A stretch of DNA of 64,000 bases from an uncultured Chloroflexia bacterium (GCA_963729175.1 CAVSMY010000015.1:5841-69840); one strand, 5' to 3'. Counted from the stretch's first letter, positions 19,150 through 62,953 are shown. Made by a program: numbers and translations. Notes: generated by a model not told the origin, from the letters alone.

Positions 19150-19199
19150 GCGGTTCGTCCCGTAACGTTGTCGAGACGAGCGACCTCGACGATGGCGCC

Positions 19200-22829: not shown

Positions 22830-22866
22830 CGTCCTGGTGGATGTGCGACGGCGTATCTTCCGTCCG

Positions 22867-24075: not shown

Positions 24076-24530
24076 GCTGGCACATCGCGGTCGAGCTCGT
24101 CCACGTCGTCGCCGCGATCGTCTTCGCCGCCGGCTACATCAGCACGAACGTCCTGACCGAGCTGGCTCGCGAGACCGACGAAGCACCGACGCGCCGCGTC
24201 GCCCTCGGACTTTCCGGGGTGTTCGATCAATTCCTCGTCATCCCGTTCGGGACCCTCGCCGGACTGTCGGGTCTGGTGCTCTTCCCGGTGCTCGGCTACC
24301 CGATCACGAGCCAGTGGGTGTGGCTTTCGACGCTCCTGTATCTCGGCGTGATCGGCCTTGGGATCACCGTCTGGCGAGCCCGCGGCCTGCGGATCGAGGC
24401 GGCCCTCGCCGACGACGACGATGCGGCGGTGGTGGCCCTGTTGCGCGATCAGCGGTACGTCGCGCTGTCGCGCGGCGAGAATGTCGTCGTCTTCCTCATC
24501 GTCGTGCTCATGATCGTCAGACCGTCGTAA
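24072..24530 (+). CDS. Small 4-TM integral membrane protein (DUF2269-like by recollection)
   Basis: 152 aa, GTGA overlap with A6. Four hydrophobic segments (HVVAAIVFAAGY, LVIPFGTLAGLSGLVLF, WVWLSTLLYLGVIGLGI, VVVFLIVVLMIV). Confidence 0.5.
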   Translation: MSWHIAVELVHVVAAIVFAAGYISTNVLTELARETDEAPTRRVALGLSGVFDQFLVIPFGTLAGLSGLVLFPVLGYPITSQWVWLSTLLYLGVIGLGITVWRARGLRIEAALADDDDAAVVALLRDQRYVALSRGENVVVFLIVVLMIVRPS

Positions 24531-24564
24531 CGGTTCCCGGACGGAGGGTCGCGAGACTGCTGCC

Positions 24565-26178
24565 ATGACGTTCATCCAGTCGCTCCGACGGACGGTGGGA
24601 CGCGGCGCACGTGACGAGGCGCCGCCGACGCCGGATACACCCCATCCCGCGGTGGCCGACGAGCCCGCGAGCATCGCCGTGGAGATCGCGCCGACCGACC
24701 CGCTCTTCGCCGTCCTCGAGTCGGCCGTCGGCGTCGTCGATGTCGATCGCATCGACCTCGACTCACCGGCGGTGCGGGAGCTCCGGGCCGCCGGTGTCCG
24801 GGTCGTCGTCCCGCTCGTGACCCAGGGAGAGTTGATCGGTGCCCTGTACCTCGGGCCCCGTCTGTCCGACCAGGACTACTCGACCGACGACCGTCGGCTG
24901 CTCACGACCCTCGCCGCCCAGGCCGCCCCGGCGATCCGGGTCGCCCAGCTCGTCGCCGAGCAGGCCGTCGAGATCCAGGCCCGTGAGCGACTGGACCAGG
25001 AGCTCCGCCTGGCGACATTGATCCAGCAGCAGTTCCTGCCCCACGCGCTGCCCGACCTGCCCGACTGGCAGGTGGCCGCCTACTACGGCCCGGCCCGGGC
25101 GGTCGGCGGTGACTTCTACGACTTCATCGAGCTGCCCGACGGCCGGATCGGGGTCGTCATCGGCGACGTGACCGACAAGGGCGTCCCTGCGGCACTGCTC
25201 ATGGCCCGGACGCACTCGATCCTCCGCGGCGAGGCACCGAGGCTTGTCGAGCCGGGAGCGGTCCTCGCGTCGGCCAACGAGGCGCTCTGCCAGGAGACCC
25301 CGGCGAACATGTTCGTCACCTGCCTGTACGCGGTGCTCGACCCGGCGACCGGTCGGCTGGTCTTCGCGAACGCCGGTCACAACCTGCCCTATGTCCGGGG
25401 CACCGACGGCGTGACCGAGCTCCGGGCGACCGGGATGCCCCTGGGCCTGATGCCCGGGATGGTGTACGACGAGGTCGTCGCGACGATCGGCGCCGGCGAG
25501 ACCGTGCTGCTGTCCTCGGACGGGTTCGTCGAGGCCCACGACCCCGGGGGCCAGATGTACGGCTTCCCGCGCCTGAAGGATGCCTTCGCGACGGAGCAGG
25601 CCGGGAGCGACACGATCGACGGGCTGCTCGAGGACCTGCGGACCTTCACCGGCAGGGACTGGGAGCAGGAGGACGACATCACCCTCGTCGCCCTGCGGCG
25701 ATCGGCCGAGACCGGGCGGACCTTCATGTTCGGCCATCCCGAGGAGACGCCGAGCGTCCTGGTCGACACCCTGATCGCCGGTGAGATCGGCAACGAGCGC
25801 CAGGCGATGGAGATGGTCGCCGCGGCCGTCGCCCCGCTCGGGCTCCCCGCCGATCGGCTCGAACGACTCAAGACCGCGGTGGCCGAGACCACGATGAACG
25901 CGATCGAATACGGCAGCCAGGGTCGAGCCGACGTGCCCGTCCGGCTCCAGGTCTTCGCCACCGACGAGGCCGTGACGGTCCGGGTGACCGACCGGGCCCT
26001 CGGCGGCACGATCCCCGACGAGCCGGAGACCCCGGACCTCGAGGCGAAGCTCGCCGGGCTCCAGAAGGCCCGCGGGTGGGGCCTCTTCCTGATCGAGCAG
26101 ATGGTCGACCGAGTGACGGTCGAACCGACCGAGGACGGCCAGGCCGTCGTCCTCCTGATGCGCAGAGGAGATGCCTGA
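24565..26178 (+). CDS. Fused GAF-like / PP2C (SpoIIE-type) Ser phosphatase / RsbW-like HATPase protein
   Basis: 537 aa. End of a GAF domain (QGELIGALYLGPR...DDRRLLTTLAAQAAPAI). PP2C motifs (GGDFYDF, GVVIGDVTDKGVPAALLM, NAGHNLPY, LSSDGFVE, DDITLVAL). C-terminal anti-sigma-kinase-like ATPase (TAVAETTMNAIEYG...ARGWGLFLIEQMVD). Confidence 0.85.
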   Translation: MTFIQSLRRTVGRGARDEAPPTPDTPHPAVADEPASIAVEIAPTDPLFAVLESAVGVVDVDRIDLDSPAVRELRAAGVRVVVPLVTQGELIGALYLGPRLSDQDYSTDDRRLLTTLAAQAAPAIRVAQLVAEQAVEIQARERLDQELRLATLIQQQFLPHALPDLPDWQVAAYYGPARAVGGDFYDFIELPDGRIGVVIGDVTDKGVPAALLMARTHSILRGEAPRLVEPGAVLASANEALCQETPANMFVTCLYAVLDPATGRLVFANAGHNLPYVRGTDGVTELRATGMPLGLMPGMVYDEVVATIGAGETVLLSSDGFVEAHDPGGQMYGFPRLKDAFATEQAGSDTIDGLLEDLRTFTGRDWEQEDDITLVALRRSAETGRTFMFGHPEETPSVLVDTLIAGEIGNERQAMEMVAAAVAPLGLPADRLERLKTAVAETTMNAIEYGSQGRADVPVRLQVFATDEAVTVRVTDRALGGTIPDEPETPDLEAKLAGLQKARGWGLFLIEQMVDRVTVEPTEDGQAVVLLMRRGDA

Positions 26179-47689: not shown

Positions 47690-48463
47690 TCAGCCGCGGA
47701 GATGGAACCGGATCCCGAGGACATCGACGACTCGGGGCTCGATACCCGTCGCCACCAGCCGGACCGTCGCCGTGTCCGACGAGCCGACTCCCGCCATCGA
47801 CGCAGCCATGAGGCGGATCGCGTGCGGCCCGACGCTCGTCTCGCGAGCGCCACGGCCGGCCAGCGACGGACGGACGAGCAGTCCGAGTGACCGGAGATAG
47901 GCCCCCTGCGTCCGGCGGACGGACGACACCGGGATCGTCAGGCCCTCCAGCCGGACCGGGGAACCGAGCGGATGGACGTCCCCGGCGCGAGCCGCGCGCT
48001 CGGCCGCGGTCCACTCGGCCGCGGTCAGGTCGTGCTCGATGAGGAACGGCGGCTCCTCTGGACCGAGATGGCCCGGGGCAGCGAGCGACCAGGCGACGGT
48101 CCGACCGTCGTCGCGGACACGGGCGCCGGGGGTCGGGCCATCCCAGTGGCCGCCGAAGTCGCGCAGCCGGGCGACGTCGGCGGCGAGATCGTCGGAGGCG
48201 AGCGCGAACGTGGCGAGCCCGCCTCCGCGATCGAGCGCCGCGAGCGTCGGGCGACCGATCCACGATCCCGCCGCGAGCGCGTCATCCGTCACGCCGATCA
48301 GCTCCAGATACGCGTCGCCGAGCCAGACGAGCCGATTTGCCGTCCCGAGCGCCGGATGGCGACCGCCGCCAGCGGCCCGGAGTCCGACGGACGCCTCGAG
48401 CGAGGCGGCCGCAGTCTCGGGGTCGCCGACGGCGATGACGATGTGGTCGATCCCGGTGAGCAC
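47690..48463 (-). CDS. Two-domain glyoxalase-like (VOC superfamily) protein
   Basis: 257 aa. MLTGIDHIVIAVGDPETAAASL...NRLVWLGDAYLELIGV...PPFLIEHD is typical of the glyoxalase-like domain family. Confidence 0.7.
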   Translation of the reverse strand: MLTGIDHIVIAVGDPETAAASLEASVGLRAAGGGRHPALGTANRLVWLGDAYLELIGVTDDALAAGSWIGRPTLAALDRGGGLATFALASDDLAADVARLRDFGGHWDGPTPGARVRDDGRTVAWSLAAPGHLGPEEPPFLIEHDLTAAEWTAAERAARAGDVHPLGSPVRLEGLTIPVSSVRRTQGAYLRSLGLLVRPSLAGRGARETSVGPHAIRLMAASMAGVGSSDTATVRLVATGIEPRVVDVLGIRFHLRG

Positions 48464-48560: not shown

Positions 48561-51500
48561 GTGGACCAGCCGCCAGTCACGGGGGACGCCGCTGCTCCCG
48601 GGGAGGGACCCGAGGTCGCGCCGGACGCGGCCCCGTCGCCCCGCCGCGGTGCCGAGCTGCGCACGTTCCTCATCGCGGACATCCGTGGCTACACCGCGTA
48701 CACCGAGGAACGCGGCGACGAGGCCGCTGCCACGCTCGCCGCGGAGTTCTCCGCGCTCGTCGAGCAGCTCGCCGGCGAGTTCGAGGGTGTCCTGCTCGAG
48801 GTCCGCGGCGACGAGGCGCTCGTCGTCTTCTTCTCCGCGCGCCAGGCTCTCCGGGCCGCGGTCGAGCTCCAGTCCCGGGCCGGCCAGCTCGCCCGGCCGA
48901 TCGGCATCGGGCTCGACGCCGGTGAGGCGATCCCCGTCGGGACCGGCTACCGCGGCACGGCGCTCAACGTGGCGGCACGCCTGTGCGCCCAGGCCAAGGG
49001 CGGCGAGATCGTCGCCTCCGAAGCGGTCATCCACATGGCTGCCCGGATCGATGGCGTCGCCTATGTCGATGCCCGGACGGTCAAGCTCAAGGGGCTCGAA
49101 GAGGCGGTCCGTGCGGTCACGGTCCTGCCCGAGTCGAGAGCCCCGAAACGGCGCTCATCACGTGGCGCGGGTGGATCGCTGCGGCAGCGTCGGATCGCCA
49201 TCCCCGTCGTCGGCGGCGCGGTCGTCGTCGCCGTCTTCGCGGTCGCCGTGCTGACAGGAACGCTCGGGTCCGGACCGTTCACGACCGCGACGCCGCGCCC
49301 GTCTCCGTCGCCGGCGGGCTCGCTGGCGCCAGCGGCGTTCTCGATCCAGGCACCGGCGTTCGCGCTCCTCGACGCGGCGACGGGGTCGCTGGTCGCGCCG
49401 ATCGGCAGCCGCAGCCCGGGTGACGAGGCGATCTTCGCGGGCGGCGCCTTCTGGCAGCTCGAGTCCGATCCCCCGGGCATCCTGCGGATCGACCCCGCGA
49501 CAGGGGGCACGACCTCGATCGGCCTGCCGCTGCGTGACCCGGGTGGGTTCGCCGTCGATGGCACGACCCTGTGGGTCGCCGACCGCGACGGGTCGCGCGT
49601 CGTCCGCATCGACACGGTGTCGGGCACACCGCTGCCAGAGCTGCGCCTCACGAGCGACCCGAACGACGTCTTCGGCGCGGCCGACGTCGTGCTCGCCGGA
49701 GGATCCGTGTGGGTCACCCGGCCGAACCCTGGGGAAGTGATCCGACTCGATCCTGCGGACGGACGGGTCGATCACCTCGATCCCGATCTCCGGCGCCGCT
49801 CGCCTCGCCGTTGACGACGATCGGATCTGGGTCCTCTCGACCGATGGCATCCTGACCGCGATCGACGTCTCTTCGGGCACCCGCGCCGCGATCGACCTCC
49901 GCCTGCCGGCCGACGAGTACGACAGCCTCGCCGTGGGCGGGGGATCGGTGTGGACCGCCGGCCGCCGTCAGGGGACCGTCTACCGGGTCTCCCGCAGCGG
50001 CGACCTCCAGGGCGGCATCCCGACGGGGGCTGGGGCCCAGGCCGTGTCGTTCGCCGATGGGCGGCTATGGGTCGGGAACCAGCATGCCGGCTCGATCAGC
50101 TCGATCACGGCCGACACGGGCAAGGTGAGCGCCCTGCCGACGGGTCAGACCGTCGTCGGGGTGGTCGCCGGCGGCGGTCGTCTGGTCGTCGGCCTCGTCC
50201 CGATGGTCGACCCGTTCGCCGGCCTCGAGGGCAAGGTCCTCCGGATCGCGATCGACGGCGATCCACTCGCCGTCTTCGACCCACCGCTGATCGAAACCTT
50301 CGAGATGTTCCAGATCTCGAACGCGACGTGTGCCGGGTTGCTGAGCTTCAAGGACGAGGGCACGCCCGGCGGCTGGACGCTCCAGCCGGAGCTGGCGGCG
50401 TCGATGCCGGACGTGAGCGATGGCGGCAAGACGTACACCTTCCACATCCGGGAGGGCGTGATGTTCGCACCGTCCGGCGGACCCATCACCGCCGCCGTCC
50501 TGAAGACCTCCCTGGAGCGGGCGATGTCGACGGGCTTCGGGACCCAGTATTCGTTCCCGAACGACCTGCTGAAGGACCTGGTCGGAGCGACCGACCTCAC
50601 GGGCGGCCGAGCTCAGACGATCGACGGCATCGTCGCCGACGGCCAGACGCTGACGCTTCGGTTCAAGCAGCCGGCGGACGACTACCTGACGAAGTTGACC
50701 CTGCCGTTCTTCTGCCCGGTGCCGCCCGACGTCCGGGCGATCCCCGGCGGGGTCAACCCGTCGACCGGCCTCCCGAGCGCCGGACCGTACTACCTCGCAA
50801 GCAAGCTGCGAGACTCGGCGATCCTCAAGCGCGATCCGACCTACAGCGGGCCACGCAAGCCGGTCTTTGACGCGATCGCGATCACCCTGAACCAGGACGT
50901 CCGGACGTCGATCGGTCAGGTCGATGCCGGTCAGCTCGACTACGTCCTGACATACGCCGACGACGCCCTCGCGCCCGACAGCGACCTGGCCAGGACGTAC
51001 GGCCCAGGGACCGCGGACCGACGGTATGTGAACGACCCGACCGGCGACGTGACCGTCCTGGCGATCCCCGGGGCCTTCCAGGCGCGCTCGCCGGGTCCGT
51101 CCCTGGCGAGCCCTTCGGCGGGGAGCCCGACACCGTCCGAGCCGCCCGGGATCGTCACCGACAAGACCGTCCGGCAGGCGATCGCCAGCGCGCTCGATCG
51201 CCCGCGTCTCGCCGCCGATCTCGGTGAGATCCCTGCCGGACGCCTGTTCACCCCGCGGACGCTCGGCTATGTCGACACGCCGCTGCTGCCGGTCGACGGG
51301 CCCGACCTCGAGCGGGCGACGTCGTTGATGGCCGGCCGGACCGGGGCCGTGACACTCGGCTATCCGGACGACTGCCAGAGCTGCCCGGACGTCGCGACAG
51401 AGATCGCAGCCGACCTCGCCCGGATCGGTCTGACCGTCACGTCCGTCGCAGAGGCGAACATCTACTCCGCCGACGAAGACATGCTCCTGCTCGGCGCCGG

Positions 51501-51789
51501 GTATCCGGACATCGATCCGGTCCGCTTCGTCGACTCGCTGCCGACCGCGGATCTGATGCGCCTGTCCGCGGAGGATGCGGCGATGGTCGCGGAGCTCGGG
51601 TTCCTGACCGGCGAGGCGCGCACCAAGGCGGCGGCAGCGCTCGCGGATCGCTGGGCCGCGGAGACGGCGACGATCATCCCGGTGTCGTACGGCGTGTCGC
51701 GCGAGTATTTCTCGGACCGGATCGGCTGCCGGGTCTTCCCGCCATCGATCTTCGCGGTCGACCTTGTCACGCTCTGTCCGAAGGATTGA
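48561..51789 (+). CDS. Receptor-type class III nucleotide cyclase, paralog C1: cyclase domain - 1 TM - beta-propeller-like repeats - SBP_bac_5 solute-binding domain; one apparent frameshift (about 49770)
   Basis: The GTG is preceded by GGAGGAGGGG. Cyclase motifs: RTFLIADIRGYT, LEVRGDEALVVF, IGIGLDAGEA, GYRGTALNVAARL. TM: IAIPVVGGAVVVAVFAVAVL. Six or more repeats of the type G..LWV.....G.v.RID..tG. SBP region: KVLRIAI...LQPELAASMPDVSDGGKTYTFHIREGVMF. Confidence 0.85.
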
Positions 51790-51791
51790 CG

Positions 51792-54700
51792 ATGGACGAC
51801 GAGCAGCGGAGCCAGACGCCGGACGCGACGCCGGAGGACGACGCGATCGGCGGCGACCCATCGGCGCCAGGAACGTCGAGCCGGGCCGCGATGCCCGGCG
51901 GTCCGTCCGCGCCCGGCGAGACGGACCTGCGGACCTTCCTCATCGCCGACATCCGCGGCTACACCTCATACACCGAAGAGCATGGCGACGAGGCGGCCGG
52001 CCAGCTCGCCGGGCGGTTCGCGGCGCTCGTCCGCGAGGTCGTCGAGGGGCGCGGCGGCTACCTGCTCGAGCTCCGCGGCGATGAGGCCCTGGCGGTCTTC
52101 TCCTCCGCTCGCCAGGCGCTCAAGGCGGCGAACGAGATCCAGCGCCGCCAGGAGATCGATGCGCTCCCGCGTGGCATCGGCATCGGCCTCGACGCCGGCG
52201 AGGCGATCCCGATCGAAGGCGGCTTCCGGGGCTCGGCGCTGAACCTGGCCGCCCGGCTGTGCGCCCAGGCCGGGCCCGGCCAGGTCGTCGCCTCCGAGGC
52301 GGTGATCCATCTCGCCGCTCGCGTCGACGGCCTCGCCTACATCGACGCGCGGACGCTCCGGATGAAGGGCCTCGACGAGCCGGTCCGAGCGGTGACGGTC
52401 GTGCCCGAGTCGCAGGCCCCCAAACGGCGCCGGAGCGGCGGCGGGCGGCGTGTCGAGCGCCGCGGCACTCTGGCAGCAGCGGGGCTGGGCCTGGCCGTTG
52501 TGGTCCTCGGGCTGGCGGTCGCGGGCTCGAGCCTGTTCCGGGGCGGACCGCCGTCGACACCCGGTCCCTCGAGCGCGGCGGAGCCGTCCTCCTCGCCGAC
52601 CCCGGCACCATCCCTCGTCCCGGGCGCGGGCGAGATCGGCGTCGCCGACCTGCCGGTGGTCGCATTCGTCGACCCGGCGACAGGTGCCGTGGGCGAACGG
52701 ATCAAGGGCTTCGGCGAGCCGGTCGATGCGAGGTTCGAGGACGGCGCGTTCTGGGTCCTCGACGACGCCCCGCGGGCCCTCCATCGGATCGATCCGTCGA
52801 CCGGGGCGGACACGCTCCAGGTCCCGCTGGGGTTCGACGTCGGGCACTTCACCGTCGGTGGTGGCCGCATCTGGGTGAGTGAGCCGACCACGACGAAGAT
52901 CCACGAGTTCGATGCCGCCTCCGGTCGGGAGGTCGCGTCGTTCGACGTGAGCAACAGCTCCTTCATCAACCAGGCGATCGGTGGTCTCGCCTTCGGCGAT
53001 GGCGCGCTCTGGGTCTCGCATGGGCCGGCGGATGTCAGCCGCGTCGATCCGACGAGCCATGCGATCCGCGAGAGCATCACCACCGAGGCGATCATCGGCG
53101 TCCAGTACACCCCGGACGCGCTCTGGGTCATCGGCTGGAACAACAACGTCGTGCGCGTGGATCCGGTCGCTCGTGCGGTGACGGGATCGACCGACATCGC
53201 CGGCCGCATCGGCGACATGGTCGCGGGAGGCGGCGTCGCCTGGGTCTCGCAGCCGGACACCGGGACGGTCGTCAAGGTCGACTCCTCGCTCGCCCAGACG
53301 ACGATCCCGACCGGACCGGGAGCCACGGCCCTGGCCTTCGACGACTCGACCGGGACGCTGTGGACGGCGAACTATGCGGCCGGGTCCGTCACCCGGGTCG
53401 ACACGGTCACGAACGCCCCGCAGACCTTCAACGTCGGGCACGGCCTGCAGACCATCGCCGCCGGCGGCGGCAAGGTCCTCATCGGCGTGACGAGGAGCCC
53501 GGACGAGATCGCGTCCGCTCTGACCGGGACGGTCCTGAGGATCGGGACGGGCGAAGACTTCTACGTCACTGATCCGGCCATCTTCGGACGGACCGACGCG
53601 CGATCCCAGGTGGATCAGGCCACCTGCGCCAGGTTGCTGGACTATCCGGACAAGGATGGTCCGGCTGGAGGGACGCTCGAGCCCTCTGTCGCCACAGCCA
53701 TGCCCGAGGTCTCGCCCGATGGCAAGACGTACACCTTCACGGTCTCCTCGGGATCCGCCTTCTCGCCGCCGTCCAACGAGCCGTTGACCGCCGAGACGTA
53801 CCGGGCATCGATCGAGCGGGCGATGGACCCCGGGCTGGGCGGTGACGAGTTCGCGCCCGGATACGCTGCACTCTCGGACATCCGTGGCGCCCTGGCCTTC
53901 CACGGTGGTCAGACCGACCACATCGAAGGCATCACGGTCGAGGGCGACCGCCTGACGATCCAGCTCGTCCAACCGTCAGCGACCTTCCTCCAGCGTCTGT
54001 GGCTCCCGTATTTCTGCCCCGTTCCGATCGGGACGCCGGCGGTCCAGGCGGGGATCAACGACCCGCCGATCGCGCGCTCGGGACCCTATTACATCGACGA
54101 GCATGTACCGGGCGCGATCACGGTCCTGAGGAAGAACCCGAACTACACGGGACCCCGGACCCCGACCTTCGATGCCATCGCCTACCTGTTCGAGCCGGAC
54201 CTGGGTCAGGCGGTCGGCCGCGTCGAGTCCGGGGCCCTCGATGTCGCGGCCGGGGCAGGCCCGGCCCTCGACATCGGAGGTCGCATCGATCGAGCCTGGG
54301 GACCGACCTCCGAAGCTGCGGGCGGGGGCGACCAGCGCCTCTTCCGCGGTGCCGAGACCGGGCTCGACTTCCTGGCTGTCAACCCCGGAAGTCAGGCACT
54401 GGCCGACCCCGACGTCCGGCGTGCCATCGGACTGGCCCTCGATCGACCGAGCCTCGCCCTGGCGATGCACTGGGCCCCGACCGACGAGATGGCGCCGCTG
54501 ACGGCGACCGGCATCACCGAGACGGATCGGTTCCCACTCGATGGTCCGCACGTGGACGAGGCGAAGGCGCTTCTCCATGGACGTCAGCTCACGCTCAAGA
54601 TCGCCTGGTACGACAGCAAAAGCTGCCCTGCGTGCCGCCAGGCGATCGACGTCATCGTCAAGGACCTGGCCGCGGTCGGGATCACTGCCACGGAGGAAGA

Positions 54701-55085
54701 GTCATCGTTCCCGGCGCAGTTCGCCGCAGGGACCGATAGCGGCTACGACCTGGCGGTCGGGAACGCCTGGCAGGACCACCCGGACCTCGCCGAGTGGCTG
54801 CAGCGGGTCTTCCCGACGGGTAGTCCGTATGACATGACGGCCCCTGCAGGCTGGGTGCCTGCGGACATCAGCGCGGAGCTCACACGGGTCCTCGGACTGA
54901 CCGGGACAGAGCGACAGACCGCCGCGGCGGCCCTGGCGAAGAAGATCGCCGACGACGTCGACTTCATCCCGCTCTGGCAGCCGGTCTACCCGGAGTTCAT
55001 CTCCGAACGGGTCGGTTGTCTCACGTTCCAGCAGCCGTACCCATCCCTTGATCTGGTCGCCGCCTGTCCGGCCGGGAGCGGCTGA
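51792..55085 (+). CDS. Receptor-type class III nucleotide cyclase - propeller - SBP_bac_5 fusion, paralog C2
   Basis: About 1097 aa, intact. RTFLIADIRGYT, LELRGDEALAVF, GFRGSALNLAARL. TM: LAAAGLGLAVVVLGLAVAG. WV-type repeats. SBP region: TVLRIGT...LEPSVATAMPEVSPDGKTYTFTVSSGSAF. The start is ATG 51792 or TTG 51786, which overlaps the C1 stop. Confidence 0.9.
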   Translation: MDDEQRSQTPDATPEDDAIGGDPSAPGTSSRAAMPGGPSAPGETDLRTFLIADIRGYTSYTEEHGDEAAGQLAGRFAALVREVVEGRGGYLLELRGDEALAVFSSARQALKAANEIQRRQEIDALPRGIGIGLDAGEAIPIEGGFRGSALNLAARLCAQAGPGQVVASEAVIHLAARVDGLAYIDARTLRMKGLDEPVRAVTVVPESQAPKRRRSGGGRRVERRGTLAAAGLGLAVVVLGLAVAGSSLFRGGPPSTPGPSSAAEPSSSPTPAPSLVPGAGEIGVADLPVVAFVDPATGAVGERIKGFGEPVDARFEDGAFWVLDDAPRALHRIDPSTGADTLQVPLGFDVGHFTVGGGRIWVSEPTTTKIHEFDAASGREVASFDVSNSSFINQAIGGLAFGDGALWVSHGPADVSRVDPTSHAIRESITTEAIIGVQYTPDALWVIGWNNNVVRVDPVARAVTGSTDIAGRIGDMVAGGGVAWVSQPDTGTVVKVDSSLAQTTIPTGPGATALAFDDSTGTLWTANYAAGSVTRVDTVTNAPQTFNVGHGLQTIAAGGGKVLIGVTRSPDEIASALTGTVLRIGTGEDFYVTDPAIFGRTDARSQVDQATCARLLDYPDKDGPAGGTLEPSVATAMPEVSPDGKTYTFTVSSGSAFSPPSNEPLTAETYRASIERAMDPGLGGDEFAPGYAALSDIRGALAFHGGQTDHIEGITVEGDRLTIQLVQPSATFLQRLWLPYFCPVPIGTPAVQAGINDPPIARSGPYYIDEHVPGAITVLRKNPNYTGPRTPTFDAIAYLFEPDLGQAVGRVESGALDVAAGAGPALDIGGRIDRAWGPTSEAAGGGDQRLFRGAETGLDFLAVNPGSQALADPDVRRAIGLALDRPSLALAMHWAPTDEMAPLTATGITETDRFPLDGPHVDEAKALLHGRQLTLKIAWYDSKSCPACRQAIDVIVKDLAAVGITATEEESSFPAQFAAGTDSGYDLAVGNAWQDHPDLAEWLQRVFPTGSPYDMTAPAGWVPADISAELTRVLGLTGTERQTAAAALAKKIADDVDFIPLWQPVYPEFISERVGCLTFQQPYPSLDLVAACPAGSG

Positions 55086-55175
55086 TCGAGGAGCCCCGGG
55101 CGACCGGACCGGATCCCTGCCGCCCACGCGATTGACAGGCTAGAGAGACTGTCGGAACCGATGCAGGAGGAGGGG

Positions 55176-58100
55176 ATGCAGGACGGCAGCGGGCCTGACG
55201 CCGCCGGATCCGTGCCCGATGGCGCCGTGACCGAGCCCGCGGATGGCGCCGTGACCGAGCCCGCGGATGGCGCCGCGCCCGAGATCCGCGGCCGCGGGCG
55301 TGTCGGCCGACGGCGCATCCGCCGAGGCCGAGCTGCGGACGTTCCTCATCGCGGACATCCGCGGCTACACGACCTACACCACCGATCACGGCGCCGACGC
55401 CGCCGCCAAGTTGGCGACCGACTTCGCGGCGATCGTCCGCGAGGTCGTGACCGCCCACGACGGGTTCCTCCTCGAGCTCCGGGGCGACGAGGCACTCGTC
55501 GTGTTCGTCCTGGCACGGCGCGCCCTCCGGGCCGCCCTGGAGCTCCAGACCCGCTTCGCCGCGGAGCTGCCGCGCGGCGTCGGCATCGGCCTCGACGCGG
55601 GCGAGGCGATCCCCGTCGAGGGCGGCTATCGCGGCTCTGCCCTGAACCTCGCAGCTCGACTGTGCGGCCAGGCAGGCCCCGGCGAGACGCTCGCCTCGGA
55701 GGCCGTCATCCACCTGGCCGCGAAGGTCGATGGCATCGGCTATGCGGATCCGCGGACCTTCCGCCTCAAGGGCATGGACGAGCCGATCCGGGCCGTCCAT
55801 GTCGTGCCCAGTGCCCAAGGCTCCAGGAAACCGATCCGCTATGGGCGCGACGGCGGCGTGGATCGCCGGCTGCTCGCCGTCGGCGGTGTCGGCCTGCTCG
55901 CGGTGGTCATCGCGGCAGCCAGCCTCTCCGGTGCGTTCGGTGGGACGCCTGCGCCGTCGTCGAGCCCAGCGGCATCCGCCGCCGGGGTCTCGCCCTCGCC
56001 GGCGGCCTCCCCGGAGCTGTTCTCGGTCGATCAGCTGCCGCTCCTCGCGTTCGTCGACCCGAAGACCGGTACGGTCACCGACAGCCGGACGACGGAGTCA
56101 CTGCTCGTCGACGGCGGTCAGACCGACGACGCCGTCTGGCTGCTCGCCGTCGACCCACTGGCCATCGAGAAGATCGACCCGATCACCCACAAGTTGCTCA
56201 AGACGTTCTCGATCCCGCTCACGAAGATGGGCGGCGCGACGATCGCTGACGGCATCTTGTGGGTGTCGGACGCGACCGGTCCGGTCGTGATCGGGATCGA
56301 CATCGCGACCGGGGTGAAGAAGCACGAGTACCACTTCGGGGCCGACGAACACGACGTCACGCGTGCGGTCAGCCTCACCTCGCTCGACGGCTCGCTGTGG
56401 GTCGGCTCGGCGGACACGAGCGAGGTCCTGCGGATGGATCCGGCGACCGGCGCGATCCAGGCGCGGATCCCGATGCAGTTCCCCGACATCCTCCAGGCGG
56501 ACCCGAGCGGTGTGTACGTCACCGGATTCGGTCAGCTCCGCCGGATCGATCCGGCGACGAACACCGTCGCCTGGGCGACGGACATCCGTCCGACGTTCCT
56601 GCCGGACATCGCCTTCGGCGGCGGCTTCATCTGGACCGTGGACGACGCGTCCGGGCACGTATGGAAGGTCCAGCCGACGGGCCAGATCGCCGATGACTAC
56701 GACGTCGGTGTCGGGGCGCTGCCGATGGCGGCAGTCGGCGACACGATGTGGGTCGGGGTACAGGACACCGGGACCCTCGTCGGGATCAACATGGTCACCG
56801 GCGCGACCCGGAGCATCCATATCGGTCATCTGATCTACACGATCTCGAAGGCCGGGGATGACCTGGCGGTGACGCTCGGCCCGACGCCCGAGGAGGTCAT
56901 CGCGGCTGTCGACGGCGACGTCCTGACGATCGCCTCGCCGTTCGGGCCGTTCCAGAGCTCGGATCCGGCGACGAGCTCAGCGTTCGAGTGGCGCCAGATG
57001 TCGTACCTGACCTGTGTCGGCCTGATGCGCTACCAGGACGCACCGGCGCCGGATGGCTGGAACCTCATCCCCGAGGTCGCGTCGGCGGCGCCGACGATCT
57101 CGCCGGACGGGCTCACCTACACCTATGCGGTCCGCGACGGATTCATGTTCTCGCCGCCGTCGACCGAGGCGATCACCGCCGCGACCTTCCAGGCCTCGCT
57201 CGAACGCGCGCTGTCGCCGGCGATGGGCGGATTTACCGGTTACACCTCGGGGTTCCTGCACATGCTCGACGGGCTCGACGCCTATCGGAACGGAGATGCA
57301 GCGCACATCTCGGGCATCACCGTGACGGACGACACGATCTCGTTCCGCCTGATCGAGCCGACGGCCGACTTTCCGAACCGCTTGACCCTGCCGTACTTCT
57401 GTCCGGTGCCGGTCGGGACGCCCACGGTCGTCGATGGCCTCGACACGGCTCCGCCGCTCCCGTCAGCCGGCCCATATTTCTTCGAGACGCTCATCGGCGG
57501 TGAGCTGGCCCTGTTCGTGAAGAACCCGAACTACCACGGTGACCGCCCGACGCCGTTCGATGCGATCGCCTTCCGGACCGGCTTCGAGCCTGGTGACGCG
57601 ATCGGCCGGGTCGACGCGGGGACCGCGGACGCAGCGACAGCTGGGGCGTATGACCGCCTCGCTAACGCCGCGAGCCAGCTGGCGAAGACGTGGGGTGAGG
57701 GGAGCCAGAACGCCACGAACGGCGATCAACGGTGGTTCGGAAGCCCGCGGTTCCAGACGCGCTACATCGCCCTGAACACGAACATCCCGGCGCTGAAGGA
57801 CCCGACGATCCGCGAGGCGATCTCGAAGGCGATCGACCGCCAGCGTCTGTCCGCCCTGTTCGGGACCGCACCGGCGCCGATCCTTCTGCCGCCGTCGGTC
57901 CCGGAGGGTCGGACGACCGCCGCGGTGCCGGCACGCGACCTGGAAGGCGCGAAGGCGCTCATGGCCGGTCGCAAGGTCGAACTGGTCATGCAGATCACCC
58001 CGAAGGGCGACATCGTCGAGCTCGACGCGATCACGACCGAGATCGTCAGCGAGCTGTCCCAGATCGGGATCACCGTCACCGTCCAGCGGTCCGACGATCC

Positions 58101-58440
58101 GACGGCTGATGCGCATGCCGATGGCTCGACGATCGGGCTGATCGAGGGCGTTCTCGACAGCGACTTCCCGAGCGCCGTCGACCTCCTCGGCGCGCTCGAC
58201 TTCTTCGCCTGGCTCACACCGGCGGACTCCGCGGAGCTGGCTCGGATCCACGGCCTGGACCGAGACGAGGGGTCGCGGGCCGCGATCGCCCTGGCGACGA
58301 AGGTCGACGCGACCGAGCACCTCGTGATCCCGTACGGCTATCCCGTCTACCCGATGTTCCTCGGACCGCATGTCGGCTGCGGCTTCGTCCAGCCGGCGAT
58401 CGGGGCCGTCGACCTCTCGAGTCTCTGCCGGAAGCCGTGA
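55176..58440 (+). CDS. Receptor-type class III nucleotide cyclase - propeller - SBP_bac_5 fusion, paralog C3; probable frameshift near 55290 (or a later start at ATG 55267)
   Basis: The ATG at 55176 has a perfect AGGAGGAGGGG SD and encodes MQDGSGPDAAGSVPDGAVTEPADGAVTEPADGAAPE. The main 1057-aa frame from 55267 carries RTFLIADIRGYT, LELRGDEALVVF, GYRGSALNLAARL, a TM, WV repeats and an SBP region (DVLTIAS...LIPEVASAAPTISPDGLTYTYAVRDGFMF). Confidence 0.85.
55218..55283 (+). repeat. 24-bp tandem repeat (2.75 copies) encoding DGAVTEPA-DGAVTEPA-DGAAPE
   Basis: gatggcgccgtgaccgagcccgcg occurs twice perfectly (55218-55241 and 55242-55265), followed by a partial variant copy ending at 55283. Confidence 0.95.
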
Positions 58441-58522
58441 CCGACGATCCGCGGGAGGCGCCCGACCCGACCGCTGCCGAGACGCCGGCGGCCAGGACCG
58501 CCGAGGATGCGACGCGCAAGCC

Positions 58523-59014
58523 ATGACCGATCAGCCGGCCCCGCCGCCAGAGTCGGAGGCGACCACCTCAGCCGCGTCGGATGCCCCCGAGCAACGGACG
58601 TTCCTCGTCGCCGACAGCCGTGGCTATACCGACTACACCGACGAGCACGGGACCGACGCCGCATCGAAGATCGCCGCCCACTTCCTCGCGCGACGCGCTC
58701 TGGCGAGCAGCGGGATCGACTACCCCGACGTCGCGTCATGGCTCCAACGGGCCCTCGGAGCCGACGTGACACCGAGCGGTCGGGCGTCCTCGTGGACGAT
58801 CGGCGAGGTCCAGGCTGCCGTCGGCGCATCGGGTCTAACGCGGGAGACCACGGCGACGAAGCTCGCGGATCGACTCGTGTCGGAGGGGTTCGTCGTCCCG
58901 TACGCGGAGCTCGATTACCCGCAGCTCTTCTCGGATCGGATCGGCTGCATCACGTATCAGCAGGGCATCGCCGAGGTCGACCTCGCTGCGCTCTGCCTGA
59001 AGCCCGGAGCCTGA
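58523..59014 (+). CDS. Internally deleted fourth cyclase-SBP paralog (N-terminal about 50 aa of the cyclase joined to the last about 100 aa of the SBP domain)
   Basis: 163 aa. EQRTFLVADSRGYTDYTDEHGTDAASKIAAHF matches the start of the C1-C3 cyclase domains. The C-terminus ...LTRETTATKLADRLVSEGFVVPYAELDYPQLFSDRIGCITYQQGIAEVDLAALCLKPGA matches the C1-C3 C-termini. Confidence 0.7.
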   Translation: MTDQPAPPPESEATTSAASDAPEQRTFLVADSRGYTDYTDEHGTDAASKIAAHFLARRALASSGIDYPDVASWLQRALGADVTPSGRASSWTIGEVQAAVGASGLTRETTATKLADRLVSEGFVVPYAELDYPQLFSDRIGCITYQQGIAEVDLAALCLKPGA

Positions 59015-59051: not shown

Positions 59052-60068
59052 GTGACGACGGCCAGGATCCTCCCAGGTGACGACCCCGGCGCGATCGCCG
59101 AAGCGGCGGAGCGGATCCGCGCCGGTGAGCCGGTCGCATTCCCGACCGAGACGGTCTACGGGCTCGGCGCGGACGCCGGGGATGCGGTGGCTGTCGCTCG
59201 CGTGTTCGCCGCCAAGGATCGCCCGACCTTCGACCCGCTGATCGTCCACGTCGCGGATGCCGCGGCCGCCGGCCCGTTGATCGACCCCGCCGGCGCCGCG
59301 GACCGGAGGATCAGCGCACTGGCCGGGCGGTTCTGGCCCGGCCCGTTGACGCTCGTCGTGCGCAAACGGCCGATCGTCCCGGACATCGTCACGGCCGGCC
59401 TCCCGACGGTCGGGCTGCGCGTGCCCGACCATCCCGTCGCCCTCGCCCTGCTGCAAGCGGCCGGGGTCCCGATCGCGGCCCCGTCGGCGAACCGCTTCGG
59501 CGGCGTCAGCCCGACCCGCGCCGAGCACGTCGCCAGCCAGCTCGGCGACCGGATCGAGCTGATCCTCGACGGCGGACCGAGCCGGGTCGGTCTTGAGTCG
59601 ACGGTCGTGCTCCTGGCCGACGGCCGCCAGGTGCTTCTCCGACCCGGTGGCCTGGCGATCGAAGCGATCGAGGCGGTGATCGGTCCACTCGGACTGCTCG
59701 GGAGCGACGAGGAGCGCTCGCTATCGCCCGGCCGGGCCGCCGGCCACTACGCCCCGCGTGCCGCGCTGGCGATCGTCGCGCCCGAAGAGACCCCGAGGGC
59801 CGTCGCCGGCGAGCGACTCGGGCTCCTCGCGGCATCCGATGCGGACAGGGACGTCGCCGTCGCGAACGGCGGCCCGTTCGTCACCATCGAGGTCCTCGCC
59901 CCGAACGGCGATCCCGTCGAGGCGGCGGCGCGGCTGTTCGACGCCCTCCATCGCCTCGATGCCGCCGGGCTCGATCGGATCGTCGCCCAACCGGTCGCCG
60001 AGCGAGGCCTCGGCCGCGCGATCATGGACCGCCTCCGCCGAGCCGCTGCGGCTACGATCGAGGCATGA
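59052..60068 (+). CDS. tsaC: L-threonylcarbamoyladenylate synthase (YrdC domain + Sua5 C-terminal domain)
   Basis: 338 aa, GTG start. PTETVYGLGADA, KDRPTFDPLIVHV, WPGPLTLV, VGLRVPDHP, APSANRFGGVSPT, then a Sua5-type C-terminal domain. Confidence 0.85.
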   Translation: MTTARILPGDDPGAIAEAAERIRAGEPVAFPTETVYGLGADAGDAVAVARVFAAKDRPTFDPLIVHVADAAAAGPLIDPAGAADRRISALAGRFWPGPLTLVVRKRPIVPDIVTAGLPTVGLRVPDHPVALALLQAAGVPIAAPSANRFGGVSPTRAEHVASQLGDRIELILDGGPSRVGLESTVVLLADGRQVLLRPGGLAIEAIEAVIGPLGLLGSDEERSLSPGRAAGHYAPRAALAIVAPEETPRAVAGERLGLLAASDADRDVAVANGGPFVTIEVLAPNGDPVEAAARLFDALHRLDAAGLDRIVAQPVAERGLGRAIMDRLRRAAAATIEA

Positions 60069-60874
60069 CCATGGTCCGGCTCGACCGTCTCGGCCCCGGG
60101 GGCGTCGTCGCGCGGGTCACGCTGGCCCGGCCGGATGCCCACAACGCCTTCGACGCGAGTCTGATCGCCGAGCTGCGCTCGACGTTCGTGGCGCTCGGCC
60201 GAGAAGGGCCGGATCGTCTCCGCGCGGTCATCCTGGCGGGCGATGGGCCGTCCTTCTGTGCCGGCGCGGACATCGCCTGGATGCGGGCGGCGATGACCCT
60301 CGACACCGAGGCGAACGAGGCCGACGCCATGGCGATGGCGGACATGCTCGAGGCGATCGATACCTGTCCTGCCCCCGTCGTGGCCCGGGTCCACGGCGCC
60401 GCGCTGGGTGGCGGCGCAGGTCTGTGCGCGGTGGCCGACCTCGTCATCGCCGAGAGCGGGACGCGGTTCGGCTTCACCGAGACACGCCTGGGGATCCTGC
60501 CGGCGGTCATCAGCCCGTTCGTCGTCGCGAAGATCGGTCCGACGAATGCGCGGGCTCTGTTCCCCGGCGGCCGCCGCTTCGACGCCGTCCGGGCCCACCG
60601 GATCGGGCTCGTCCACGAGGTCGTCGAAGGCGAGGCAGCGCTCGATGACGCGGTCGCTGCGGCGGTCGCAGACCTCCTCGCCGCCGGGCCCACGGCGGCC
60701 CGAGCAGCGAAGGCGATCGTCCGCGAAGTCGCGGGACTCTCGCACGGCTCGTCGAAGTGGCACACGGCCCGGGTGATCGCCCGACAGCGCACCTCGGAAG
60801 AGGCACAGGAGGGGTTCCGGGCCTTCTCCGAGCGACGCCGGCCGGCGTGGGCACCCGACCCAGAGGGCGACTAG
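60065..60874 (+). CDS. Enoyl-CoA hydratase/isomerase family protein (methylglutaconyl-CoA hydratase by context)
   Basis: 269 aa, ATGA overlap with tsaC. NAFDASLIAEL, FCAGADIAWM, VHGAALGGGAGLCAVADLVIA, FGFTETRLGILPAVISPF. The specific function is inferred from the neighbouring MCCase and HMG-CoA lyase genes. Confidence 0.75.
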   Translation: MTMVRLDRLGPGGVVARVTLARPDAHNAFDASLIAELRSTFVALGREGPDRLRAVILAGDGPSFCAGADIAWMRAAMTLDTEANEADAMAMADMLEAIDTCPAPVVARVHGAALGGGAGLCAVADLVIAESGTRFGFTETRLGILPAVISPFVVAKIGPTNARALFPGGRRFDAVRAHRIGLVHEVVEGEAALDDAVAAAVADLLAAGPTAARAAKAIVREVAGLSHGSSKWHTARVIARQRTSEEAQEGFRAFSERRRPAWAPDPEGD

Positions 60875-60934
60875 GGCGCGATCGGCGACGCTGCCTTGCG
60901 CAGAATGGCTCGATACGCGACGATCGCGCCACTG

Positions 60935-62953
60935 ATGACGGACCGACTGTCGCCAAGCGCGTACGCCCGGGCCGGATCGGCGTGTCCACGCGGACCGTCC
61001 AGCGCTGGATCGAGACCGGACGGCTGCCCGCCGAGCGTGTCGGTGGGCGATGGCATGTCGCGTTTGACGCGTTGGACGCTTCACGCGCACTGGCATTGCC
61101 CAGCCAGACCGCCGGGCGACCGATCGGGACGCTGTTCATCGCGAACCGTGGCGAGATCGCGGCGCGGATCGAGCGGACCTGCCGCCGCCTCGGGATCGTC
61201 GCCGTCATCCCTGAGGTCGAGGGACCAGAAGCGATCGACCTGCTCGACCCGGCGGCGGTCGTCGCAGCGGCCGTCACGACCGGCGCAGACGCGCTTCATC
61301 CGGGATATGGCTTCCTCGCGGAGTCCGCCCTCCTGGCCGAGGCCGTCGAGGCGGCCGGCATCCGGTGGGTCGGCCCGCCGGCCGAGGCGATCCGTGCCGT
61401 CGGAGACAAGGCCGCCGCGCGGCGCCTCGCCGCTCGCCTCGGGATCTCCGTGGCGCGTGGCTACGACGGCCCTGCCCAGGACGACGCCGCGCTCCGTCGA
61501 GCGGCAGGGCGGATCGGCTTTCCGGTCCTGATCAAGCCAGCCGCCGGGGGTGGCGGCAAGGGCATGCGGATCGTTCGCGACCGAGGCGAGCTCGCTGAGG
61601 CGCTCGATGCGTCTCGGCGGGAGGCCCGATCCGCGTTCGGCGACGACCGGCTCATCCTCGAGGCGTTGATCGAGCACGCCCGCCATGTCGAAGTCCAGGT
61701 CCTGGCCGATCACCGCGGTGGCGTGGTCCATCTTGGGAGAGCGGGACTGCTCGGTCCAGCGGCGCCATCAGAAGGTCCTCGAGGAGACGCCCTCGCCGGC
61801 CGTCGACGACGCCCTCAGGGCGGCTCTCGGGAGCGCGGCGACCCGCCTCGCCGCAGCGGTCGGGTACGCGAGTGCCGGGACGTGCGAGTTCCTCGTCGCC
61901 GACGACGGATCGTGGTCCTTCCTCGAGATGAACACCCGCCTCCAGGTGGAGCACCCGGTGACCGAGATGGTGACCGGTCGCGATCTGGTGGCCGATCAGC
62001 TGGCGATCGCGGCCGGGGCGACGCTCTCCGAGCTCGGCCTCGAAGGCGATGAGCCGCCGCCCGACGGTCACGCGATCGAGGTCCGCCTCTACGCCGAGGA
62101 TGCCGAGGCGGGGTTCCTGCCGGCGACGGGGCGGGTCGAGGCGCTCCGCTGGCCCGCGAGCGACAGCATCCGGGTCGATGCGGGGATCGAGCTCGGGACG
62201 ATCGTCGGCGCGCGGTTCGATCCGCTGCTCGCGAAGATCATCGCCCACGCTCCGGATCGGGCGACCGCGCTGGCGCGGCTCGCGATGGCGCTCGACGAGA
62301 TCCTGGTGCTCGGCGTCGTGACGAACCTCCGGTTCCTTCGGTGGCTTGTCCGACAGTCGTGGCTCGTCGAGGGCGAGGCGCGGGTCGACTCACTCGATGC
62401 CACCTGGGCTCCGATCGTCGGTTCGGCGGTCCCCGACGATGCCTGGGCGACCGCGGCGGCTGCGCTGGCGCGACGCCCGGACGAGCGCGCCGACGACCCA
62501 TGGTCCGACGGCTGGCGGCTCGGTGGATGGGGTGTCGTGACGCTGCTCGCCGAGGATGGCGAGGTCCGGCGGATCTCGATCTCCCCGGGGATGGCGGTGG
62601 ACGACCGCGGGGTCGTCATCGGTGTCGACGGTGGCGCGTTCGTCGACGTCGACGGCCGGAGCGTCGGGTTCCGGTCGGCGCCGCCGCCGGACGTCGACCG
62701 GGCGGCCCGCGACGCCCGGGCCCACCACGATGCCGGGACGGCCCGGCTCGAGGCGCCGATGCCCGGGCGGGTCATCGGGGTCGCGACGCGGGTCGGCGGC
62801 CGGGTCGATACCGGCGATCCGGTCGTGACCCTCGAGGCGATGAAGATGGAGCACGTGATCCGCTCGCCGATCGAGGGCGTGGTCGAGTCGGTCGAGGTCC
62901 GCATCGGCGATCAGGTCGACCGGGGCCGGCTGCTCGCGGTCGTCGAACCGTGA
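60935..62953 (+). CDS. Methylcrotonyl/acyl-CoA carboxylase alpha subunit (biotin carboxylase + BCCP) with an apparent N-terminal excisionase-type HTH; two apparent frameshifts (about 60975 and 61735)
   Basis: HTH-like IGVSTRTVQRWIETGRLPAERVGGRWHV. Then LFIANRGEIAARI, HPGYGFLAE, LIKPAAGGGGKGMRIV. After the shift: ERDCSVQRRHQKVLEETPSP, EMNTRLQVEHPVTE. The C-terminal biotinyl motif is TLEAMKMEH. The start is uncertain; a TTG near 61090 would give a protein without the HTH. Confidence 0.75.

Follow-up and report, generated by a model that had tools for sequence, protein, structure and literature searches.

The DNA considered here is a 64,000-nucleotide stretch (the window; G+C ~72%) from an uncultured Chloroflexia bacterium (GCA_963729175.1, CAVSMY010000015.1:5841-69840), in which four genes on the same strand, here called C1 to C4, lie between a divergent glyoxalase-like gene and a Sua5/TsaC gene (Table 1). 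Three of them code for proteins that combine an N-terminal class III cyclase homology domain (CHD) with a single transmembrane (TM) segment, a beta-propeller and a family-5 solute-binding protein (SBP) domain; the fourth is a remnant. An initial annotation, made from the sequence alone, had read these proteins as receptor-type cyclases. Using profile searches, structure prediction and a comparison of related loci we find that they belong to a large family that is uncharacterized and mis-annotated and is represented in the window by an unusually dense tandem array, and that their cyclase domains carry an invariant pair of residues otherwise seen in a bacterial guanylyl cyclase.

Organization of the array

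The CHD motif RTFL[IV]AD.RGYT is found just four times in the 64 kb, always on the same strand (at 48666, 51936, 55342 and 58601). C2 is identical to the public protein P0001 (1097 amino acids, aa) and C3 equals the public protein P0107 (1057 aa), in agreement with a C3 start at the ATG at 55267; the start at 55176 proposed in the initial annotation is an ATG in another frame. The domain order described there, namely a CHD of ~160 aa followed by a TM helix, a Pro/Ser linker, a propeller and an SBP domain, is the same in C1 (which is split), C2 and C3, and the peptides it quoted, as well as the RIGC...DL...C tail, are found in the translations. The tandem array of three genes and one remnant is thus confirmed, but C1 is not one open reading frame (ORF) and the start of C3 had been misplaced. 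The ATG of C2 at 51792 comes 2 nucleotides (nt) after the stop codon of C1, which suggests that the two genes are co-transcribed.

Table 1. Positions of the array, its domains and other features of the window, and domain architectures of related proteins
Feature	Positions	Strand	Remarks
C1, 5' part	48561-49772	+	N-tail, CHD, TM helix, Pro/Ser linker, first propeller blades; start codon uncertain
C1, 1-nt frameshift	49768-49772	+	apparent extra G between ...cgg gtc and atc acc...
C1, 3' part	49771-51789	+	+1 frame; remaining propeller blades and complete SBP_bac_5
C2, intact predicted receptor cyclase	51792-55085	+	ATG 51792 (1097 aa) or TTG 51786 (1099 aa)
C2, CHD	51924-52406	+	aa 47-207; phmmer against PDB, invariant columns
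C2, single TM segment	52461-52547	+	aa ~226-254; preceded by KRRRSGGGRRVERR
C2, predicted seven-bladed beta-propeller	52656-53492	+	aa 291-569; 28 strands in model
C2, family-5 (cluster C) SBP domain	53532-55082	+	aa 583-1099; Cys-containing conserved C-terminus
C3, intact predicted receptor cyclase	55267-58440	+	1057 aa; SBP_bac_5 E-value 8e-41
C4, remnant of a fourth diverged paralogue	58523-59014	+	163 aa; alignment to family
Glyoxalase-like gene	47690-48463	-	divergent
Sua5/TsaC gene	59052-60068
Biotin carboxylase/biotin carboxyl carrier protein (BCCP) gene	~60694-62953	+	1-nt insertion at ~61735, in conserved HLGERDCS motif, frame 1 to 2
GAF-GGDEF protein	224-1273	+
RskA-type anti-sigma factor	1314-2381	-
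Extracytoplasmic function (ECF) sigma factor	2219-2860	-
BTAD-AAA_16-TPR (SARP/AfsR-like) regulator	16261-19350	-	large
Second tandem array	19116-24075	+	members 19116-20429, 20426-21619, ~21600-22755, 22768-24075
GAF-SpoIIE(PP2C)-HATPase_c_2 protein	24514-26178	+
L014	313-4158		Trans_reg_C-BTAD-Pkinase-TM-propeller-SBP_bac_5
P0148			(BTAD)-Pkinase-CHD-TM-propeller-SBP_bac_5; Pkinase and Glu/Gly-type CHD both in cytoplasmic part
L043	1630-4521		same CHD-TM-propeller-Peripla_BP_6/ANF_receptor
L061	9968-12802		same CHD-TM-propeller-Peripla_BP_6/ANF_receptor
L067	9842-12856		same CHD-TM-propeller-Peripla_BP_6/ANF_receptor
L075			CHD-TM-PQQ propeller-NHL
P0125			CHD-SBP5, propeller absent
P0194, P0169			metagenome; CHD-nSTAND1 NTPase-WD40, 1400-1700 aa

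The cyclase homology domain and its predicted substrate

A phmmer search of the PDB with the N-terminal domain of C2 (163 aa) recovered Ma1120 (E-value = 7e-14), 3mr7 (3e-12), Rv1900c (1e-8), Rv1264 (3e-8) and Cya2 (1.5e-5), with residues 5-159 of the 163 being covered. In an alignment of 38 homologues this domain is the best-conserved part, and the aspartates that ligate the metal ions (D55 and D99), the asparagine and arginine that stabilize the transition state (N153 and R157, in NxxxR spacing) and the phosphate-binding K194-G195 are all invariant. Given this conservation of the catalytic residues, the domain looks like a catalytically competent class III nucleotidyl cyclase domain, and it is modeled with high confidence (predicted local distance difference test, pLDDT, >90). 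The cyclase assignment of the initial annotation is therefore upheld both by the match to Ma1120 and by the invariant catalytic residues. A search of NCBIfam, which lacks a model for this family, gave only a partial match, to the cyclase portion of LipJ.

The initial annotation had overlooked the residues at the two base-specifying positions, E95 and G146, which are likewise invariant in the 38 homologues and occupy the places of the lysine and aspartate pair of adenylyl cyclases, which is absent. E95, G146 and A156 of C2 align with K101, D157 and A167, the base-specificity positions of Ma1120 (PMC4215837), and the best PDB match of the C2 domain is an Ma1120 mutant carrying the changes K to E, D to G and A to Y, ahead of the wild type. 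The bacterial guanylyl cyclase Cya2 has the same Glu-Gly pair; converting K101 and D157 of Ma1120 to the guanylyl-type residues markedly raises its guanylyl cyclase activity and lowers its adenylyl cyclase activity, with the K101E/D157G double mutant being the best guanylyl cyclase, and in Cya2 a tyrosine preceding the catalytic arginine enhances guanylyl cyclase activity (PMC4215837). Of these Cya2-like features the family has the Glu/Gly pair and lacks the tyrosine. The full signature, D-E-D-G-N-A-R-K, was seen in 53 of 55 ORFs of related loci that combine a CHD, a propeller and an SBP domain, whereas K-D, K-G or other combinations stand at the base-specifying positions in the cytosolic CHD-STAND cyclases of these loci. 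Because the Glu/Gly pair is invariant, GTP is predicted to be the favored substrate, alone or together with ATP; judged from these residues, a guanylyl or dual activity is slightly favored, a purely adenylyl activity would be a lesser though substantial prospect, and a preference for another nucleoside triphosphate would be quite improbable.

Membrane topology and the ectodomain

C1, C2 and C3 each have one strongly hydrophobic segment, 20-40 residues past the CHD and preceded by a stretch rich in arginine and lysine. In C2 its Kyte-Doolittle maximum is 2.37 and it is the sole such segment in the protein; the same holds for the family, as one TM segment was found in 38 of 38 members. Across the 38 homologues the mean net charge is +5.5 in the 20 residues before the TM segment and +0.3 in the 20 after it. 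By virtue of this positive-inside charge bias the CHD is predicted to be cytoplasmic and the propeller and SBP domains extracytoplasmic, as the initial annotation had assumed for the latter. There is no N-terminal signal peptide, since the chain begins with the CHD. Four cysteines of the SBP part (C614, C744, C1078 and C1094) are invariant, which would fit an oxidizing location. The linker between the CHD and the TM segment is ~20 residues long, basic and glycine-rich, and that between the TM segment and the ectodomain is ~35 residues of mainly proline, serine and alanine; both have low pLDDT in an AlphaFold2 (AF2) model of C2 built from the 38 homologues, whose overall confidence is good (mean pLDDT 86; predicted template modeling score, pTM, 0.75).

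The propeller was recognized by Pfam as DUF6923 repeats (~30 bits), with NHL repeats scoring 13.9 bits, under their cutoff of 20; a phmmer search of the PDB with this part gave no match. Modeled alone, it has a pLDDT of 93.7 and a pTM of 0.91, and Foldseek returned as best matches 1l0q (YVTN), 3vgz (YncE) and 2z2n (Vgb lyase), all of them seven-bladed. Thus the six to seven repeats noted in the initial annotation do form a propeller in the model, with 28 strands that make up seven blades. The six-bladed NHL propeller of PknD, which we considered as a candidate, is ruled out by this blade count and by the sub-threshold NHL score, and the domain is predicted to be a seven-bladed propeller of the YVTN/YncE/Vgb type.

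The SBP_bac_5 domain was detected in C1, C2 and C3 with e-values of 1e-35 to 1e-41 (2e-39 in C2; 122-141 bits, against a cutoff of 32.4), nearly the whole Pfam profile being covered in all three. A phmmer search of the PDB with the C2 domain recovered 8upi (E-value = 1e-16), and Foldseek matched its model with e-values of ~1e-30 over ~530-570 columns to 8upi, AapF, MppA, DppE, NikA and OppA, with a target-normalized template modeling score (TMt) of up to 0.78 against open MppA (4toz). In the model it is a bilobal alpha/beta domain with the complete cluster C fold, in keeping with the completeness claimed for it earlier. The ligands of its fold neighbors are peptides, murein tripeptide, opines, nickel chelates and a signaling amine.

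Distribution and modularity of the family

A search with C2 recovered more than 120 full-length homologues (1027-1147 aa; 37-56% identity) from metagenomes and metagenome-assembled genomes (MAGs) of Chloroflexota and Ca. Limnocylindria. For the comparison of loci we used the best 80 of at least 392 relatives in species-representative genomes, of which 79 loci were fetched; these 80 are all from MAGs and represent Limnocylindria, 'Chloroflexia', Gaiellales, Thermoleophilia, Acidimicrobiia and other Actinomycetota. The whole architecture is present in a single ORF in 55 cases among the fetched loci, with at least 50 loci of this kind in MAGs of Chloroflexota (Limnocylindria) and Actinomycetota, and the CHD subtype itself has 668 cluster representatives (at 50% identity) with e-values of 1e-30 or below. 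A full-text literature search found no description of the CHD-TM-propeller-SBP architecture. Hence the domain order, which the initial annotation had not seen described and proposed to look for in other genomes, does appear to be new to the literature, but it is not rare among MAGs, the family being common in soil bacteria that have not been cultured.

Standard annotation does not reveal the family: the cyclase is missed by the Pfam model, the name given by NCBI is 'ABC transporter substrate-binding protein' and NCBIfam is without a model. The JGI label, derived from COG, is 'ABC-type transport system substrate-binding protein/class 3 adenylate cyclase'.

Both halves of these proteins also occur in other combinations (Table 1). 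The same propeller-SBP ectodomain is carried by Ser/Thr kinases (L014 and P0148), which bears out, in a literal sense, the analogy with PknD drawn in the initial annotation. Conversely, the CHD is joined to several other sensors: in L043, L061 and L067 the propeller is followed by a domain of the Peripla_BP_6/ANF_receptor type, with the Glu/Gly pair being visibly kept in the L043 and L067 sequences, in L075 it precedes a different propeller, and in P0125 it is combined with the SBP domain directly. Since the ectodomain is shared by kinases and cyclases and the CHD accepts many sensors, we consider these proteins to be a sensor/output system and not a transporter component. As a side observation, L043, L061 and L067 are made of the same parts as the receptor guanylyl cyclases of animals, arranged the other way round. 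P0194 and P0169, in which the CHD is again N-terminal, are cytosolic STAND-type cyclases. The 'cyclase-like' DUF2652 family (PMC4886424) was also considered and is a different, cytosolic family.

Divergence within the array

The paralogues of the array are 65-72% identical in the CHD, 30% in the propeller and 35-38% in the SBP domain, or ~37-38% over the whole protein. C3 shares 60% identity with the first gene of a tandem pair in L004 and C2 shares 56% with P0002; the best match of C1 to any protein reaches 40%. A recent tandem amplification is ruled out, as C2 and C3 are closer to proteins of other genomes than to their neighbors in the array; judged from these identities, the paralogues are old. 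The neighborhood of the window (PdxS, MarR, a carboxyltransferase, MOSC/GNAT and then the biotin carboxylase) recurs in L001, L003, L023 and L055, each with one cyclase gene, and in L004, with two. The locus is thus syntenic, and in the window it has undergone a local expansion to three genes and a remnant. Synteny and the closest relatives point to Limnocylindria-type Chloroflexota as the origin of the window.

The conserved output and the strongly diverged ectodomains suggest that the paralogues probably sense different ligands, although this divergence would also fit a weaker constraint on the ectodomains. The diversification of ligand specificity that the initial annotation had read from the presence of three copies is thus supported by the retention of the CHD against the divergence of the sensor, but the copies are old and there was no recent burst.

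Functional interpretation

The results above show which domains are present and how they are predicted to lie in the membrane, that the catalytic residues are conserved, that sensors and outputs have been exchanged, and how the paralogues have diverged. From them we infer a scheme for ligand binding, dimerization, product and downstream effectors in which C1-C3 are probably nucleotidyl cyclases, possibly guanylyl, that serve as receptors, cross the membrane once in type II orientation (N-in, C-out) and are activated by ligand-driven dimerization. Outside the cell, the propeller and the Venus-flytrap fold of the family-5 SBP would constitute a ligand sensor. Inside, class III CHDs that carry all catalytic residues in one chain are active only as head-to-tail homodimers. 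No HAMP domain, signaling helix or cyclase-transducer element was detected by Pfam in these proteins, and both linkers look flexible, so that rigid-body transmission across the membrane is unlikely; given that the CHD is active as a dimer, ligand-controlled dimerization or clustering is the most likely mode of control. A ligand held in the SBP cleft, possibly with assistance from the propeller, would alter the self-association of the ectodomain, and this in turn would set the proximity of two CHDs and switch on the synthesis of the cyclic nucleotide. By analogy, the logic would be that of the PknD/PknB-type kinases, and co-expressed paralogues might also form heterodimers. The co-option of the SBP domain as a sensor, already proposed in the initial annotation, gains support from the kinase-fused relatives of the ectodomain and from the gene context: ABC ATPase signatures (LSGGQ, G.SG.GK[ST]) are absent throughout the 64-kb window, and the annotated neighbors of the array are metabolic genes.

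Several observations weigh against this interpretation or parts of it. The Pfam model PF00211 (Guanylate_cyc) gave no match in C2 and C3 and at best 12.8 bits in C1, against a cutoff of 21.9, and at e-values up to 10 Pfam returned no usable cyclase match for the N-terminal domain; the domain check proposed in the initial annotation accordingly bore out SBP_bac_5 and the propeller-type repeats but left Guanylate_cyc below threshold. Since the Pfam model falls short, the cyclase assignment rests on the phmmer matches to solved class III cyclases. Relatives come close to the PF00211 threshold or pass it (L043, 21.8 bits; P0194, 26.7 bits), and the model appears to be insensitive to this CHD subfamily. 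At the position of the Cya2 tyrosine the family has A156 (serine in a few members), on account of which the specificity stays a prediction, and specificity pairs are in any case imperfect predictors of the substrate. AF2 did not build the TM segment as a helix, with residues 214-275 of the C2 model (the TM segment and the Pro/Ser linker) being of low confidence. The dimerization mechanism is drawn from the composition of the linkers, and an ABC permease encoded elsewhere might yet serve as a docking partner of the SBP domain. Finally, clustering of ORFs across the 79 loci revealed no conserved partner or effector gene; the sole recurrent 'neighbor' is an antisense shadow ORF over the CHD.

The alternative that departs least from the receptor interpretation concerns the product: the proteins might be receptor adenylyl cyclases making cAMP, in which the Glu/Gly pair does not dictate a preference for GTP. 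Nearly all characterized bacterial class III enzymes are adenylyl cyclases, as are the closest solved relatives, Ma1120, Rv1900c and Rv1264, and both the replacement of the Cya2 tyrosine by alanine and the COG-derived 'adenylate cyclase' label would agree with such an activity. The lysine and aspartate that specify adenine are, however, both replaced by exactly the pair found in Cya2, without variation, and the same two substitutions, K101E and D157G, move the activity of Ma1120 toward GTP (PMC4215837); an adenylyl specificity is accordingly the less likely option, though a real one. That the CHD has lost activity and serves as a dimerization or scaffold module, or that it makes pyrimidine cyclic nucleotides like PycC of the Pycsar systems, is very improbable: despite the sub-threshold PF00211 scores, the six canonical positions and the phosphate-binding lysine are invariant across distant phyla. 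Membership in PycC in particular was ruled out, as the matches to its profile are weak (25-27 bits), no Pycsar effector gene is adjacent to the array and the neighbors are metabolic.

A different role for the whole protein would follow if the SBP domains were transport proteins tethered to the membrane and serving a distant permease of the Opp/Dpp type, with the CHD reporting on or regulating transport. The domain is complete and closest to the transport SBPs MppA, DppE, OppA and NikA, monoderm bacteria have to anchor their SBPs, and NCBI names the homologues accordingly; moreover, L006 has a separate SBP-type ORF ~8 kb from its cyclase gene, followed by unannotated ORFs. Yet genes for an ABC ATPase or permease are neither present in the 64-kb window nor conserved beside the homologues, the ectodomain also occurs on Ser/Thr kinases while the CHD also occurs on propeller sensors devoid of an SBP, and the CHD shows no variation in its catalytic residues, so that we regard this role as improbable. 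The chance that the fusions, or the array, are assembly artefacts joining separate cyclase and SBP genes is practically negligible. The assembly is of the metagenome type and contains at least two frameshifts (see below), but the architecture recurs in the 55 single ORFs of MAG loci and in the more than 120 metagenome proteins, which come from several sources and independent assemblies, and the locus is syntenic in L001, L003, L004, L023 and L055. Collapsed repeats are ruled out, because the paralogues are less than 40% identical. The fusion of cyclase and SBP genes put forward in the initial annotation is accordingly genuine.

Extending the receptor interpretation beyond the window, we tentatively suggest that bacteria possess receptor guanylyl cyclases of type II topology that make up a large and overlooked family, in which extracellular Venus-flytrap domains (the family-5 SBP in C1-C3, a PBP resembling ANF receptors in the sister proteins) would gate cGMP synthesis. 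If so, the family would be a convergent counterpart of the animal natriuretic-peptide receptors, and cGMP signaling would be widespread in uncultured soil Chloroflexota and Actinomycetota. If the proteins make cGMP, the short list of bacterial guanylyl cyclases would be greatly enlarged, and if they are ligand-gated they would give direct access to the signals perceived by abundant but uncultured lineages of soil, among them Limnocylindria and Gaiellales. With a small CHD and an ectodomain predicted with high confidence, they are practical objects for such tests.

Comparison with known systems

Bacterial class III cyclases are modular, and receptor cyclases with a periplasmic-binding-protein (PBP) fold are known in eukaryotes: the natriuretic-peptide receptor guanylyl cyclases of animals and the receptor adenylyl cyclases of trypanosomatids have a PBP-fold ectodomain, one TM segment and a CHD. 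The family described here shares with them a single-pass layout, an ectodomain of the PBP fold and a dimeric class III cyclase, whose control by the ectodomain is predicted in our case. The topology, however, is opposite, with the CHD N-terminal and inside and the sensor C-terminal and outside; the sensor is a cluster C SBP and not a type I PBP, a seven-bladed propeller is added, and there is neither a kinase-homology domain nor a coiled-coil transducer. Specifically, the layout of the animal receptors is not matched in C1-C3, where the order is inverted and no Pkinase or kinase-homology domain is present. The eukaryotic analogy drawn in the initial annotation thus holds for the logic of a single-pass PBP-fold receptor cyclase but not for the order of domains or the family of the SBP. 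The PknD-type Ser/Thr kinases of Actinobacteria have the same N-in, C-out single-pass layout with an extracellular propeller as sensor; their output is a kinase and their propeller a six-bladed NHL one, whereas the family has a cyclase output, a propeller of the YVTN/YncE/Vgb type and an added SBP.

With respect to the catalytic domain, C2 resembles Cya2 of Synechocystis PCC 6803 (PDB: 2w01) and the KDA to EGY mutant of Ma1120 (5d0g) in being a class III CHD with the Glu/Gly pair, the canonical metal-binding aspartates and the asparagine/arginine pair. It differs from Cya2 in having alanine in place of the tyrosine next to the catalytic arginine, and from both in the N-terminal place of the CHD, to which a TM helix and a large ectodomain are attached; in sequence, the similarity to Cya2 reaches an E-value of only 1.5e-5.

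There are precedents for family-5 SBPs acting as receptors of signals; the review of such signaling deals with free SBPs only (PMC8050422). DppA (with Tap), CBP (with ChiS), AapF and PrgZ share the fold of C1-C3 and are SBPs that also signal, but they are free or lipid-anchored and dock on separate receptors or transporters, whereas the SBP of the family is covalently fused to its predicted output. Typical family-5 SBPs also have ABC genes alongside and a signal peptide or lipobox; the family has neither and is anchored by an internal TM segment. Among the characterized proteins that we found by full-text literature search, none matches the combination of a family-5 SBP fused to a cyclase, a CHD-first topology and an invariant Cya2-like Glu/Gly pair.

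Integrity of C1 and C4

The 5' part of C1 contains the CHD motif at 48666, a TM segment at residues ~210-240 and a DUF6923 match of 30.8 bits, and its 3' part matches SBP_bac_5 (E-value = 3.6e-35) over positions 2-360 of the 368 in the profile. The initial annotation had given C1 as one ORF from 48561 to 51789, but the frame of 48561 runs into a stop at 49814, and the half with the SBP domain lies in the +1 frame (49741-51789). A 1-nt frameshift near 49770, with the junction RLDPADGRV / ITSIPISG, thus splits the gene. Repair gives a protein of 1075 aa that retains all but one of the 81 family-invariant residues, on which ground a decaying pseudogene was ruled out, and C1 is probably intact in vivo. 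Because a second 1-nt lesion, in the biotin carboxylase/BCCP gene (Table 1), lies within 12 kb, the frameshift of C1 is probably an indel error of the assembly. In L003 and L004 the homologue of the biotin carboxylase/BCCP protein is encoded by one uninterrupted ORF (743-806 aa). Cyclase homologues in eight of the fetched loci (L021, L023, L029, L060, L065, L069, L073 and L077) are broken into 2-5 ORFs in overlapping frames; these are mostly from 'MFD...bin' assemblies, a pattern consistent with assembly indel errors rather than pseudogenization.

C4 is dead. Its start is most likely the methionine codon at 58523; in the alignment, its residues ~3-64 match the beginning of the CHD, and its residues 59-158 match the last ~105 aa of the SBP domain. 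It is a fusion of the N-tail and the CHD start (~60 aa) to the end of the SBP, without D99, the TM segment and the propeller, and appears from this alignment to be the product of an internal deletion that removed roughly 900 aa.

Genomic context

The window is rich in other signaling genes (Table 1), including a GAF-GGDEF protein, a GAF-SpoIIE(PP2C)-HATPase_c_2 protein, an SARP/AfsR-like regulator and an ECF sigma factor with an RskA-type anti-sigma factor. GAF domains can bind cyclic nucleotides, and it is a matter of speculation that the GAF-GGDEF and GAF-PP2C proteins might be effectors of the cyclases. A second tandem array, of four paralogous polytopic membrane proteins with no Pfam match, lies upstream of the GAF-SpoIIE(PP2C)-HATPase_c_2 gene in a region of strongly negative AT skew, and its members have in common the tail LRYRL[FY]EIDRxISRT...FGLFQPxRRRVQxxVDRRFDRAxVDAE.

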